Positions 24,359-30,391 of a stretch of DNA of 37,763 nucleotides are shown here, one piece after another (position 1 is the stretch's first letter; every line of letters begins with the position of its first letter). The stretch is taken from the NCBI GenBank assembly GCA_027306955.1, contig DAHUXX010000098.1:1-37763 (forward strand), written 5' to 3'. Source of the DNA: Acetobacteraceae bacterium. GTDB taxonomy: Bacteria; Pseudomonadota; Alphaproteobacteria; Acetobacterales; Acetobacteraceae. The position numbers and the translations under genes are program-made. A model generated the notes under the pieces. It did no database searches and was not told the DNA's origin. It worked only from the letters and a program-made list of their open reading frames with translations.

Positions 24359-24502
24359 ATGGCCACCTCCTTACAGCCCGTGACCGAGGAAGCCTTCACC
24401 GAGGACCGGAAGCATTTCCACCACAGCTTCGTCGCCTTCGTGACCATGGCCGCGACGGCGATCGCGGTACTGCTGATTCTGATGGCGTATTTCCTGACCT
24501 GA
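24359..24502 (+). CDS. 47-aa single-TM protein resembling bacterial aa3-type cytochrome c oxidase subunit IV (COX4_pro_2-like)
   Basis: It is not in the supplied track because it is under 60 aa. My own translation is MATSLQPVTEEAFTEDRKHFHHSFVAFVTMAATAIAVLLILMAYFLT*. The pattern D-x-[RK]-H-x3-[ST]-F-x2-F followed by a TM helix resembles Paracoccus/Rhodobacter subunit IV. The SD is weak. Confidence 0.45.
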   Translation: MATSLQPVTEEAFTEDRKHFHHSFVAFVTMAATAIAVLLILMAYFLT

Positions 24503-24569: not shown

Positions 24570-25157
24570 CTAGATCAGGTCTTCGGCCAGCGCCGCGCGC
24601 GTCGCCTCGGGCAGCACGGTCATATGCGCGTAGTGCGGGTGATCGAGGCCGAGGACGACGCGCGAACCCGGCTCCCGCAGAGCCGCCACCGCCGCCTCGT
24701 CAAGCGGAAAATGCACGAACTGCACGGAGGATGCCTTGCCCTGCGCCGTGGTGCGGTCCTGGTCGGTCTCCGCCGCCGCCTTGACGCGATGCCCACCGAT
24801 CTCGAGGAACGCCGTCTCCTCGATGCCGCCGAGCGTGGAGAGCACGCGCTTGCGGCGCTCCGGATCGTCGATCTCGATCATGAAGGTCGCGACCAGCTCC
24901 CGCCCGTTGGGGATGAGCGGGTTGTAGGCAGCGAGCTCGTCGGGCAGCTGCGCGTCGCCGCCCTTCTCGATGTGCAGCATCTCCTGCACCTGGTGCCACA
25001 TCGTGTGCCAGTTCTCGAAGAAGAAGGTGACGAACGGCCCCACCGCGACGCGGCGCGGCCGCTTGATCGCCGTCATCCGGGTCCGCCACTCGCGGCGCCG
25101 CGTCGCGTAGGTTTCCCACGGCAGGATGTCCGCGGGGTCGATCACCGTCTTCGCCAT
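24570..25157 (-). CDS. DUF3501-family protein (uncharacterised)
   Basis: ~195 aa: ..DILPWETYATRRREWRTRMTAIKRPRRVAVGPFVTFFFENWHTMWHQVQEMLHIEKG... I recognise this as DUF3501 from memory. The start is either 25157 (GGAG 9 nt upstream) or 25166. It begins 4-13 nt after the Fe-S gene stop. Confidence 0.75.
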   Translation of the reverse strand: MAKTVIDPADILPWETYATRRREWRTRMTAIKRPRRVAVGPFVTFFFENWHTMWHQVQEMLHIEKGGDAQLPDELAAYNPLIPNGRELVATFMIEIDDPERRKRVLSTLGGIEETAFLEIGGHRVKAAAETDQDRTTAQGKASSVQFVHFPLDEAAVAALREPGSRVVLGLDHPHYAHMTVLPEATRAALAEDLI

Positions 25158-25170
25158 CGCCGTCATCTCC

Positions 25171-26565
25171 TCAAACCTCGATCCCATAGGCGCGCGCCAT
25201 CAGGATGATCGGATGCGAAACGACCTCGGGCACCGGCGCGTCACCGCCGGCGCGGTGCATTGCCTGGTCCAGATGCATCGCCGCCAGCGGACACTCGGAG
25301 GTCGCGACCGGCTTGCCCGCGCCCTGCAGCGCGCGCGCCGCCGGCCGCCCGACCTTCATCGCCACCGCGAAATTCTCGTGGCGGAAGCCCCAGGAGCCGC
25401 CGTGTCCGGAGCAGCGCTCCACCACGCCGACATCCGCCCCGGGGATCAGTCGCAGCATCTCGGCTGCCTTCTGTCCCATGTTCTGCGCGCGCGCGTGGCA
25501 GGCCATATGCACGGCAACGCCGCCCGGCAGCGACGAGAGGCCGGGGGCGAGCCCCTCCTTCCTCGCGATATCGACGACGTATTCGCAGATGTCGAAGGTG
25601 GCAGCCGCGAGCTTCTTCACGCCCACATGCTGCGGCAGCACCAGCGGCCACTCGAATTTCAGCATCAGCCCGCAGGACGGAATCGGGGCGACGACGTCGT
25701 AGCCCTTCTCGATCCACGGCGCGAAGGCATCGGCGGCGCGCTTCGCGGCCTCCGCGACATCGGCAAGACGGCCCTGCTCCAGCAGCGGCATGCCGCAGCA
25801 GCCCGGGTGCAGCACCTCAGCCCTGATGCCGTTCCGCGCCAGCACGCCGAGCGCGGCGTGGCCGATCGCCGCGTCGTTGTTGTTCACCCAGCAGGTCGCG
25901 AACAGCACCACTTTGCGCCCCGCGGCGGGCGCGGTGTGGTTCACCTCCGGCGGGTCGGTGCGCGCGCTGATGGTGAAGCGATGGCTTTCGTAGCGCGGCA
26001 GTTCCGCCTCGCGGTCGAAGCCGACGATCTTCTCGAGGATCGGCCGCGTGACCTCGTTGCCGCGCTTGAGCACCCAGTTGGCCAGCGGGGCGGCAAGCGT
26101 GCCGAGGGCACCCACGACCTCGGTCGCGGCGAGCCTGCGGTCCAGCATGCCGAGCCTGTGCGCCTCCGCCGCGCGGGCGCGCAGCATAAGGTGGGGGAAA
26201 TCCAGATCGAAGGCATGCGGCGGCACGTATGGGCATTTCGTCATGAAGCACATGTCGCAGAGCGTGCAGGCCTCGGCGACGGGCTTGAAATCGGCGCTGT
26301 CCACCGCGTCCAGCTCGCCCGTCTTCGACGCATCGATCAGGTCAAACAGGCGCGGGAAGGAATCGCAGAGATTGAAGCAGCGGCGGCAGCCGTGACAGAT
26401 GTCGAAGACGCGGCGGAGTTCCGCGTCGATCGCCTCGGGATCGAGCCAGGCTTCGTCCTGCCAAGGGATCGGGTGGCGCGTCGGCGCCTCGAGACTGCCT
26501 TCTCTCATCGGGTCGTGCCGCGCGGCAACGTACCGGCCCCGGGCGAGGCCGGGACCGGAGTTCAT
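25171..26565 (-). CDS. (Fe-S)-binding oxidoreductase with two 4Fe-4S ferredoxin motifs and CCG cysteine-rich domains (HdrD/GlpC/GlcF-like)
   Basis: Contains [11 protein letters not shown] and [13 protein letters not shown]. The first CCG-type domain is ..FATCWVNN...HPGCCGMP...IPSCG... The second is degenerate: ..MACHAR...[10 protein letters not shown]...SECP. Length is 464 aa. Confidence 0.85.
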
Positions 26566-26580
26566 TGCGCCTGCGCGTCG

Positions 26581-27003
26581 TTACTTCGCGATCTCGTCCA
26601 GCGCGCGCTGGAAGCGCCCGGCGTGCGAACGCTCGGCTTTGGCCAGCGTCTCGAACCAGTCGGCGATCTCCTCGAAGCCCTCCTCGCGGGCGGTGCGGGC
26701 CATGCCGGGGTACATATCGGTGTACTCGTGCGTCTCGCCGGCGACGGCCGCCTTGAGGTTGGCGTCGGTCTTGCCAATCGGCAGGCCCGTCGCCGGGTCG
26801 CCCACAGCCTCGAGGAATTCGAGATGGCCGTGCGCGTGGCCAGTCTCACCCTCCGCCGTCGAGCGGAACACGGCGGCGACGTCGTTGAACCCTTCCACGT
26901 CTGCCTTCTGAGCGAAATACAGGTAGCGGCGATTGGCCTGGCTCTCGCCCGCGAACGCTTCCTTGAGATTGTGCTCGGTCTTGCTGCCCTTGAGTGTCGT
27001 CAC
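26581..27003 (-). CDS. rubrerythrin-family di-iron protein without a rubredoxin domain
   Basis: 140 aa with a GTG start and GAGGA 4 nt upstream. It has four-helix-bundle ligands: AGESQ, EGETGH (ExxH), AGETHE, KAERSH (ExxH). No CxxC pairs are present. Confidence 0.9.
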
Positions 27004-27188
27004 GTTGTCCTCGTTGCGTGAAAATCCCCACCCCGGTTATCGCGCCGGAAGGTCGACCGCAAGACGGGTTGCTGCATTGCACAAGGATTTTTGTGTGGGC
27101 CGTGCCCGATCGCTCCAAGGGCCCGGAAAGCCAGGCGGCGCCGGGGTTTGCCCACGGCGTCGCCCCATCCTTCCAGTCCAGCCCGCGA

Positions 27189-29488
<2,300 letters not shown>

Positions 29489-30391
29489 ATGTTCCAGATC
29501 AGCCTCCGACAGCTCCGCTATTTCGACGCCGTCGCCCGGCACACCCATTTCGGCCGTGCCGCGGCGGCCTGCGCCATCTCCCAGCCGGCGCTCTCCATGC
29601 AGGTCAAGGAGCTTGAGGAGGCGCTTGGCGCCGTGCTGGTGGAACGCGGTGCGCGCCAGGTGCGGCTGACCGCCTTCGGCGAGGAGGCGGCGCGGCGCGT
29701 GCGCGACATCCTGCGTTCCGTCGACGAGCTGGGCGACGTCGCCCGCGCCTCGCGCGACCGGCTGACCGGGCGGCTGCGCATCGGCATGATCCCGACCATC
29801 GCGCCCTACCTGCTGCCGGCGGTCATCGCCAACCTCAACCGCGCGCATCCGGAGCTCGACATCCTTGTGCGCGAGGCACTGACGTCCCGCCTCATCGTCG
29901 AGTTGACCGAGGGGCGGCTCGACACCGCGATCCTGGCGTTGCCGGTCTCCGAGCCGGCGCTCGCCGAAACCCCCCTTTTCACCGAGAATTTCCTGCTCGT
30001 CCGCCCGGCCGCCGATGCCGCGGCGCCGGTGCCCGGCCCGCAGGCGTTGCGCGAAATGAGGTTGCTGCTGCTGGAGGAGGGGCATTGTTTCCGCGACCAG
30101 GCGCTTGCCTTCTGCGACATGGAGGGCGCGCAGCCGCGGGAGATCATGGATGCCAGCTCGCTCGCGACCCTGGTGCAGATGGTGGGCGCCGGGCTCGGCG
30201 TGACATTGATCCCCGAGATGGCCGTCGCGCTCGAAACCCGTTCCGCCGATGTCACGGTCGCGCGTTTCGCGGACCCGCAGCCCGCGCGCACCGTCGGCAT
30301 GGTCTGGCGCAAGGCGAGCCCGCTGGTGGGACCGTTTCTGCAGTTGTCGGATGCGGTCGCCGCGGCCGTGCGAGGCAACTATCCGGACTAG
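29489..30391 (+). CDS. oxyR: LysR-family hydrogen-peroxide-sensing regulator OxyR
   Basis: Has an N-terminal wHTH (LRYFDAVARHTHFGRAAAACAISQPALSMQVKELE). The redox Cys pair is in the conserved context LLEEGHCFRDQALAFC (C200/C209, the same 9-residue register as E. coli C199/C208). It is divergent from katG. Confidence 0.85.
   Translation: MFQISLRQLRYFDAVARHTHFGRAAAACAISQPALSMQVKELEEALGAVLVERGARQVRLTAFGEEAARRVRDILRSVDELGDVARASRDRLTGRLRIGMIPTIAPYLLPAVIANLNRAHPELDILVREALTSRLIVELTEGRLDTAILALPVSEPALAETPLFTENFLLVRPAADAAAPVPGPQALREMRLLLLEEGHCFRDQALAFCDMEGAQPREIMDASSLATLVQMVGAGLGVTLIPEMAVALETRSADVTVARFADPQPARTVGMVWRKASPLVGPFLQLSDAVAAAVRGNYPD

Follow-up and report, generated by a model that had tools for sequence, protein, structure and literature searches.

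In 2016, Cardenas, Quatrini and Holmes (PMC5114695) described an 'aerobic-type' lineage of rubrerythrins (RBR) devoid of the rubredoxin domain, whose genes form a trio with those of an iron-sulphur protein, RFO, and of a protein with domain of unknown function 3501 (DUF3501). Among the 4461 genomes of that survey the triple was found in 185 and RBR with DUF3501 alone in 25, against two exceptions only; Thermoproteales have rubrerythrin and DUF3501 without RFO, DUF3501-RFO gene fusions were seen in Nitrosomonas, and the authors hypothesised that RFO makes up for the missing rubredoxin domain. Here, I describe such a trio on contig DAHUXX010000098.1 of an Acetobacteraceae bacterium (37,763 nucleotides, the whole of which was analysed and is hereafter called the window), and show that it is an ordinary copy of the published RBR-RFO-DUF3501 system and of low novelty.

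The system has been met with repeatedly since its first description. Gray et al. (2020) referred to it as the 'aerobic-type rubrerythrin system' and reported that all three proteins are mitochondrially targeted in Andalucia and other protists; in the same year, a paper in the ISME J showed the cluster to adjoin oxyR and dps in Sideroxydans ES-1. In Burkholderia pseudomallei, the genes bpss1837 (hypothetical), bpss1838 ('ferredoxin') and bpss1839 (rubrerythrin) undergo near-identical induction under oxidative stress; crystal structures have been published for the Burkholderia orthologues of rubrerythrin and DUF3501, and a 2025 preprint on the structures of the B. pseudomallei rubrerythrin (BpRbr) put forward the hypothesis that its operon partners act as electron-transfer partner. 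Both BpRbr and sulerythrin are domain-swapped dimers; metal binding is promiscuous in the former, and the latter, which has peroxidase activity, is a Fe-Zn protein in its native state. Reduction of H2O2 and of organic hydroperoxides has been shown for single-domain rubrerythrins. Among the bacterial relatives only ferriperoxin, a peroxidase on which aerobic growth depends, has been studied biochemically; in vitro it is reduced by NADPH and ferredoxin:NADPH reductase (FNR), without RFO or DUF3501, and its Km for H2O2 with this surrogate FNR system is about 1.6 mM.

An initial annotation of the window, made from the sequence alone, had offered the trio as a candidate uncharacterised module, with the pair RFO-DUF3501 in the place of rubredoxin. 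Neither part of this proposal is new: both stand in the 2016 paper (PMC5114695) and were taken up again in 2020 and 2025. Its remark that the trio is biochemically uncharacterised agrees with the literature searches made here, which found no biochemistry on RFO or DUF3501.

Conservation of the trio

Consecutive on the minus strand of the window are the genes for a single-domain rubrerythrin (Rbr) with complete ligands, for an adjacent COG0247-type protein with CCG domains whose nearest family is GlpC (RFO), and for an adjacent protein of the Pfam family PF12007 (DUF3501), and this trio is conserved elsewhere. Linkage was judged on 80 species-representative loci with a relative of DUF3501, all of them from Alphaproteobacteria (query alignment of 12 sequences), to which a Burkholderia locus was added; 71 of these 81 loci (numbered here with the prefix L) have enough upstream DNA to be informative. 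The three genes follow one another as rbr-rfo-DUF3501 on a single strand in 75 of the 81 loci, which come from different species, and the trio is present in 70 of the 71 informative ones. The sole exception (L009) has neither rbr nor rfo, and the neighbours of its lone DUF3501 gene, namely a DEAD helicase, MAPEG and SHMT, are uninformative. The initial annotation had taken the three genes for a functional module around a rubredoxin-less rubrerythrin, a view that would have suffered had DUF3501 and the CCG protein mostly occurred without rubrerythrin in other genomes; the present loci, as well as the published genome counts given above, show the opposite.

The trio of Burkholderia stagnalis encodes proteins that are 81% (Rbr), 44% (RFO) and 42% (DUF3501) identical to those of the window. 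It was also found in one AT-rich alphaproteobacterium and in a metagenomic contig with a divergent DUF3501 (L089), in the latter with one 12-nucleotide and one overlapping junction. Over the species-level loci, median identity to the window proteins is 88% for Rbr (range 81-94%), 60% for RFO (44-67%) and 58% for DUF3501 (42-72%). One locus that had seemed to be a variant without RFO (L092) turned out to contain a frameshifted RFO in an error-prone assembly.

Clustering of the open reading frames of the 81 loci returned no conserved fourth gene as electron donor, the only recurrent neighbours being irr and genes in housekeeping synteny (NMO-like, pnp, fabI, fabB, 2-hydroxyacid dehydrogenase and thiF). 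Downstream of DUF3501, 36 of the 81 loci (e.g., L037:7289-8290 and L094:5197-6183) have a co-directional gene for a D-2-hydroxyacid dehydrogenase, and in about 20 loci irr is preceded by NMO-like and pnp genes; neither arrangement occurs in the window, and both probably reflect conserved synteny and not functional partnership.

The three proteins

The 140-residue Rbr matches the Pfam family Rubrerythrin (PF02915) at 7.7e-30, and its seven-residue di-iron ligand set is complete (E20, E53, H56, E90, E93, E124 and H127). The protein contains no cysteine at all, and therefore has neither a rubredoxin domain nor a CxxC motif, which makes it a single-domain erythrin, as had been read from the sequence initially. 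The NCBIfam rubrerythrin model gives 139 bits (cutoff 200) and aligns only over positions 1-146 of its 194, the C-terminal rubredoxin-like Cys4 domain of classical rubrerythrin being absent from Rbr. The best matches in the PDB are the B. pseudomallei rubrerythrin (9onm/4di0, 2e-73) and sulerythrin (1j30, 6e-52), and the classical rubrerythrin 1b71 matches at 4e-31. Identity to the Burkholderia protein, which is itself encoded in an operon of the same type, is about 80%.

RFO, whose residues are numbered here along its longest reading frame of 464 codons, carries two ferredoxin-type motifs, C57xxCxxCxxxC67 and C100xxCxxCxxxxC111P, a Pfam CCG domain (residues 219-303, 4.4e-9) that includes C256C257G, and a second CCG-like half with C-S-G in the place of CCG and C-P-L-A in that of CxxC. 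The early description of one good and one degenerate CCG domain next to two ferredoxin motifs thus holds. Four Cys of five are retained in the first CCG domain, CCG1 (C225, C256, C257 and C298), and three of five in the second, CCG2 (C356, C385 and C425), the two missing from the latter being kept by GlpC and HdrB. To gauge conservation, 77 RFOs from the alphaproteobacterial and Burkholderia loci were aligned, of which the 73 without gaps at these columns were counted. Invariant among them are the eight Cys of the ferredoxin motifs, the seven Cys of the CCG domains, and His357, His388 and His431, Burkholderia included. His388 and His431, which stand in the contexts C385-S-G-H388 and C425-P-L-A...H431, are specific to RFO with respect to GlpC. 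A further cysteine, C327, is found in the window RFO only.

A precedent for such remodelled sites is found in the structure of EtfD, where CCG domains with a reduced number of Cys hold a linear [3Fe-4S] cluster on four Cys and a non-cubane [4Fe-4S] cluster completed by a His; these clusters form an electron wire, and have been proposed to be an adaptation to aerobic conditions. By analogy with EtfD, the Fe-S cluster at the CCG2 site of RFO may be ligated in part by His, or unusual in some other way.

The AlphaFold2 model of RFO (pLDDT 87) retrieves by Foldseek LutA (target-normalised TM 0.80, the closest for the CCG half), HdrB and EtfD of M. smegmatis, at E values from 1e-9 to 2e-5. The matches to HdrB (5odc_B and 8rwn_B; 4e-7 to 2e-5, target-normalised TM of about 0.6) attest to the CCG fold; the two complete motifs of HdrB/HdrD (C-Xn-CCG-Xm-CxxC, with five Cys each) are not found in RFO. 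Searched against the PDB as a single sequence, RFO matched nothing, and with a profile it gave one marginal match to HdrB. The nearest family by sequence is GlpC: the Escherichia coli protein is 26% identical (3e-29), and the best NCBIfam matches are two GlpC models, both below cutoff (PRK11168, 189.3 against 278; TIGR03379, 111.2 against 279.9). No transmembrane segment was predicted for RFO, and neither glpA nor glpB is present in the window near rfo, which has rbr, the DUF3501 gene, katG and purN as its neighbours.

The third protein matches PF12007 at 4.7e-62, which settles its initial naming as DUF3501, and a Pfam scan with E values up to 1 returned this family alone. In the PDB it matches 3fjv (B. 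pseudomallei YP_111841, function unknown) at 7e-30, and its AlphaFold2 model (pLDDT 95) superposes on that structure with a TM of 0.91; presumably, 3fjv/YP_111841 is BPSS1837. Beyond 3fjv, Foldseek of the model against the PDB gave nothing convincing, the next match being 4eae (E 2.6e-3, TM 0.37, root-mean-square deviation 9 Å). The protein contains no cysteine and no recognisable cofactor motif. Invariant, or almost so, are its residues R21, R35, F47, E48, E59, E64, E74, Y78, E95, R102, H173 and Y176, and P83 and L106 are conserved as well. The family comprises 2348 clusters at 50% identity and its members, of about 195 residues, are almost all single-domain. The longer proteins among the top 150 representatives have N-terminal extensions resembling eukaryotic targeting peptides, apart from one read-through and one fusion to an Rce1-like domain; a DUF3501-RFO fusion was not seen among these 150. 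In the Rce1-like fusion (L089:5001-6617, P0240, 538 residues) DUF3501 is followed by a C-terminal Rce1-like/CPBP membrane domain, the trio being intact, which hints that the complex can be membrane-tethered.

Gene boundaries and spacers

The features of the locus are collected in Table 1. The longest open reading frames of rfo and of the DUF3501 gene extend over 25171-26565 (464 residues) and 24570-25187, respectively. RFO most likely starts at M20 (26508), which gives a predicted protein of 445 residues, since its homologues are 445-447 residues long, the N-terminus MREGSLEAP is conserved, and the gene calls of near-identical contigs are of 445 residues. With this start the gap between rbr and rfo is 72 nucleotides, and not 15. 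DUF3501 was called as a protein of 195 residues from 25157, which leaves 13 nucleotides to rfo; other in-frame starts are at 25166 and 25187. Thus, of the tight packing initially described, the three minus-strand genes and the 13-nucleotide junction stand; the 15-nucleotide junction most likely does not, and the length of 464 residues given to the Fe-S protein is probably to be replaced by 445.

Table 1. Features of the rbr-rfo-DUF3501 locus and of its surroundings (positions in the window)
Feature	Position	Strand	Basis
rbr, single-domain 'aerobic-type' rubrerythrin (erythrin), 140 residues, GTG start	26581..27003	-	Pfam PF02915, PDB matches
rbr-rfo spacer, 72 nucleotides if RFO starts at M20	26509..26580	-	sequence and folding
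rfo, GlpC/HdrD-like Fe-S protein, probably 445 residues	25171..26508	-	Pfam CCG, GlpC models, AlphaFold2/Foldseek
DUF3501 protein, 195 residues	24570..25157	-	PF12007
katG-rbr spacer, 185 nucleotides	27004..27188	-	sequence, folding, promoter/site scans
katG, catalase-peroxidase, 728 residues	27189..29375	-	NCBIfam PRK15061, Pfam peroxidase
OxyR-like LysR regulator, 300 residues	29489..30391	+	Pfam HTH_1 and LysR_substrate
47-residue open reading frame, COX4_pro_2-like	24359-24502	+	Pfam, 1.2e-4

In the relatives, the median spacers are about 104 nucleotides between rbr and rfo and 29 nucleotides between rfo and DUF3501. Most of their rbr-rfo spacers (L004-L088) begin, directly behind the stop codon of rbr, with a strong hairpin (median z of -2.5, 64% below -2 versus shuffles), in some cases followed by a T-run; the spacer of the window has a 10-bp GC hairpin just past the rbr stop, which is weaker (z = -1.5). 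This suggests that the hairpin is a partial terminator or a stabiliser, giving more Rbr than RFO and DUF3501. On the far side of the trio, the small plus-strand open reading frame situated between DUF3501 and purN has a match, just above cutoff, to COX4_pro_2 (subunit IV of bacterial aa3 cytochrome c oxidase), and is called at the same place in the close relatives L085-L087.

Regulatory context

katG lies directly upstream of rbr, on the same strand, and its product scores 1306.7 bits with the NCBIfam model PRK15061 (cutoff 981). Divergent from katG is the gene of an OxyR-like regulator, for which the best NCBIfam model is OxyR (PRK11151), with 249.8 bits and below the cutoff of 329. Given its position right behind katG, with the divergent oxyR-like gene close by, the trio is probably expressed as part of a peroxide response. 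The link with oxidative stress surmised in the initial annotation is further backed by the neighbouring oxyR of Sideroxydans and by the co-induction of bpss1837-1839.

Co-transcription of katG with the trio and control by OxyR are plausible. In the spacer between katG and rbr, a long GC-rich stem without U-tract follows the katG stop (-84.1 kcal/mol, z = -1.57), a GAGGA ribosome-binding site precedes the GTG of rbr, and scans of the minus strand revealed neither a sigma-70-like promoter nor an intrinsic terminator. The best match to the E. coli-type OxyR consensus has 9 of 16 positions and lies between oxyR and katG (29454-29490), the best in the katG-rbr spacer has 7 of 16; these scores are not discriminating, as 43 positions of the window reach at least 9.

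The usual context of the trio in Alphaproteobacteria is a different one. An iron control element (ICE box) of Irr (TTTAGAA-N3-TTCTAAA, with up to 3 mismatches) is present within 300 nucleotides upstream of rbr in 58 of 69 alphaproteobacterial loci, versus 16 of 690 random control segments. It lies about 70-250 nucleotides upstream of rbr (L012-L083), and in most cases a TTGAC motif resembling a -35 element comes only a few bases after it. Likewise, a co-directional gene of the Fur family, which the NCBIfam models Irr/IrrA match above cutoff, is found 110-300 nucleotides upstream of rbr in 58 of 68 loci (e.g., L036:3625-4038). A rubrerythrin-like gene had been predicted in minimal Irr regulons (Rodionov et al. 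2006), and the linkage to irr and ICE in the relatives extends this prediction.

The window holds no ICE box with up to 3 mismatches anywhere, none with up to 4 mismatches in the 300 nucleotides upstream of rbr, and no Fur-family gene. Conversely, katG was found within 6 kb of the trio at none of the 80 related species-level loci; an exact-sequence lookup of the window Rbr returned no other contig, and the contigs of close relatives are cut short upstream of the trio. The position next to katG and the oxyR-like gene, in place of the usual alphaproteobacterial control by irr and ICE, is the only feature that distinguishes the window copy.

Possible mechanism and alternatives

It seems reasonably probable that the trio acts as a peroxide reductase, with RFO as the wire that brings electrons to the di-iron site of Rbr and DUF3501 as a non-redox adaptor. 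A domain-swapped di-iron Rbr would reduce H2O2 to water and, probably, organic hydroperoxides to alcohols, as its relatives do. The re-reduction of the di-ferric site would fall to RFO, because Rbr has no rubredoxin domain. RFO itself would be a chain of Fe-S clusters, two of them cubane [4Fe-4S] and one or two more in the remodelled CCG domains; that it acts as an electron wire is suggested by its 15 invariant Cys and by a fold like those of LutA, HdrB and EtfD, the CCG domains of the last being such a wire. DUF3501 could dock Rbr to the reductase and couple the two, since it has no Cys, co-occurs with rubrerythrin even where RFO is absent, and is fused to RFO in the literature. The electrons might ultimately come from ETF, from the quinol pool, from a thiol, or by a soluble route through a flavoprotein or NAD(P)H.

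Several points weigh against this picture. The literature searches found no experiment that shows reduction of Rbr by RFO or DUF3501, or an interaction of the three proteins. A dedicated reductase is not strictly required, given that NADPH and FNR alone reduce ferriperoxin, and RFO is not the universal donor, given the Thermoproteales. The neighbourhood contains no conserved gene for an upstream donor, only housekeeping synteny, and the idea of a quinol donor is weakened by the lack of a predicted membrane segment in RFO. At the window itself, co-transcription with katG and control by OxyR are putative, the katG-rbr spacer having a long GC stem and no convincing OxyR site. Lastly, the adaptor role of DUF3501 is a guess, its fold having no convincing match outside its own family.

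Some of the same facts would be accounted for if a general reductase, such as a ferredoxin:NAD(P)H reductase, fed Rbr while RFO and DUF3501 maintained it, for example through metal loading or reactivation of the di-metal site, or through repair of an over-oxidised one. The in vitro sufficiency of NADPH and FNR for ferriperoxin fits this, and so do the pairs of Rbr and DUF3501 without RFO; correct metallation is a real problem, as the promiscuity of BpRbr and the Fe-Zn site of sulerythrin illustrate, and DUF3501, without Cys, has a conserved set of Glu, His and Tyr (E48, E59, E64, E74, E95, H173 and Y176). Yet the Km of ferriperoxin suggests that FNR is not its optimal partner, a 445-residue RFO with so many invariant Cys resembles an electron-transfer chain and not a chaperone, and the fold of DUF3501 matches no metal chaperone, so that such a maintenance role appears rather unlikely. 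The pair RFO-DUF3501 might instead be a substrate oxidase akin to LutABC, GlpABC or GlcDEF, with DUF3501 binding the substrate and Rbr acting as terminal reducer of peroxide or O2, or as protector of the Fe-S enzyme, the whole module being then a metabolite:H2O2 oxidoreductase. LutA is structurally the closest to the CCG half and GlpC the nearest family in sequence, the Lut, Glp and Glc systems pair their CCG protein with a further subunit, and no separate donor gene is conserved nearby; in LutABC the role of one subunit is poorly understood. DUF3501, however, accompanies Rbr where RFO is absent and has a novel fold without any cofactor- or substrate-binding motif, and the much stronger conservation of Rbr than of its two partners fits Rbr as the core enzyme; this oxidase is decidedly unlikely.

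The link with irr raises the question of iron. In an iron-handling device, Rbr would be a ferroxidase or iron buffer and RFO would release the iron reductively, and the operon does lie behind irr and ICE in the large majority of alphaproteobacterial loci, the Irr regulon includes bacterioferritin and mbfA, and the rbr of Pelagibacter is annotated as putative ferroxidase and is up 1.57-fold under iron limitation. Any iron-rich enzyme, however, could equally be expected to stand under Irr control, the window copy has neither ICE nor irr and sits with katG and the oxyR-like gene, and the characterised relatives are peroxidases. A dimer of a 140-residue rubrerythrin, moreover, is not known to have a storage cavity. 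On balance, I hold a device of this kind to be very unlikely. Database names are at the root of the remaining proposal, namely that the middle gene encodes a plain GlpC or 'ferredoxin' and that its clustering is incidental: homologues are called 'glycerol-3-phosphate dehydrogenase subunit C', and GlpC models come first in NCBIfam. That identity is ruled out by the low identity and the sub-cutoff scores, by the absence of glpA and glpB from the window and by the altered cysteines of CCG2, and with the near-invariant linkage to rbr and DUF3501 the chance of a merely incidental cluster is close to nil.

A bolder version of the peroxide reductase can be formulated, in which RFO would directly reduce the di-iron site through a CCG2 cluster of a kind not described before, air-tuned and partly His-ligated (three Cys with His357/388/431), with DUF3501 for docking; the trio would then stand for a new class of rubredoxin-independent peroxide reductases, fed by respiration or flavoproteins and extending from Sulfolobales to the mitochondria of protists. 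Taken in all its parts, this version is doubtful.

Significance and comparison with known systems

The module is widespread: it occurs in numerous aerobic bacteria and archaea, and the literature reports it from the mitochondria of several protist lineages. If its electron donor and the role of DUF3501 were worked out, catalase, Ahp, peroxiredoxins and cytochrome c peroxidase would be joined by a further peroxide-scavenging pathway, and a DUF of known crystal structure would gain a function. The window locus adds little to this, for it is a typical copy, and the question of the reductant of Rbr and of the role of DUF3501 predates it. The new details of the present analysis are the loss of Cys from CCG2 of RFO in company with invariant His, and the contrast between irr/ICE in most relatives and katG with the oxyR-like gene here.

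With classical rubrerythrin (Desulfovibrio vulgaris, Pyrococcus furiosus) the window Rbr shares the chemistry and the ligands of a di-iron four-helix bundle. It departs from the classical chain of rubrerythrin, rubredoxin and NADH:rubredoxin oxidoreductase in that it lacks Cys altogether, its cluster has no rubredoxin gene, and the proposed donor is of the HdrD/GlpC type. Ferriperoxin of Hydrogenobacter thermophilus and sulerythrin of Sulfolobus tokodaii are, like Rbr, single-domain rubrerythrins without rubredoxin domain. Ferriperoxin differs from the window system in having been assayed with NADPH and FNR and in that the RFO gene of H. thermophilus is unlinked; unlike both proteins, the window Rbr is of a mesophile type, closest to those of Burkholderia and Alphaproteobacteria.

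RFO is organised like GlpC of GlpABC, with a ferredoxin domain for two [4Fe-4S] clusters and two CCG domains, and is set apart from it by the missing GlpA and GlpB, by the CSG and CxxA of CCG2 and by the invariant His388 and His431. It has in common with HdrB/HdrD and mycobacterial EtfD the CCG-domain fold, which in those proteins carries unusual Fe-S clusters as catalytic sites or wires. It differs from them in its 4+3 of 5+5 CCG Cys, in having no cytochrome b or membrane domain and no HdrA, HdrC or HdrE in the window, and in the direction of electron flow, which is proposed to be toward a di-iron peroxidase instead of a disulfide or a quinone.

Among the systems described, the closest counterpart of the window locus is bpss1839-1838-1837 of B. 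pseudomallei, with the same families in the same order and on the same strand, and with the high identity of Rbr and the structural match of DUF3501 to 3fjv reported above. From the RBR-RFO-DUF3501 system as published, the window copy differs in its regulatory context alone, in that it sits with katG and an oxyR-like gene and without irr or ICE.

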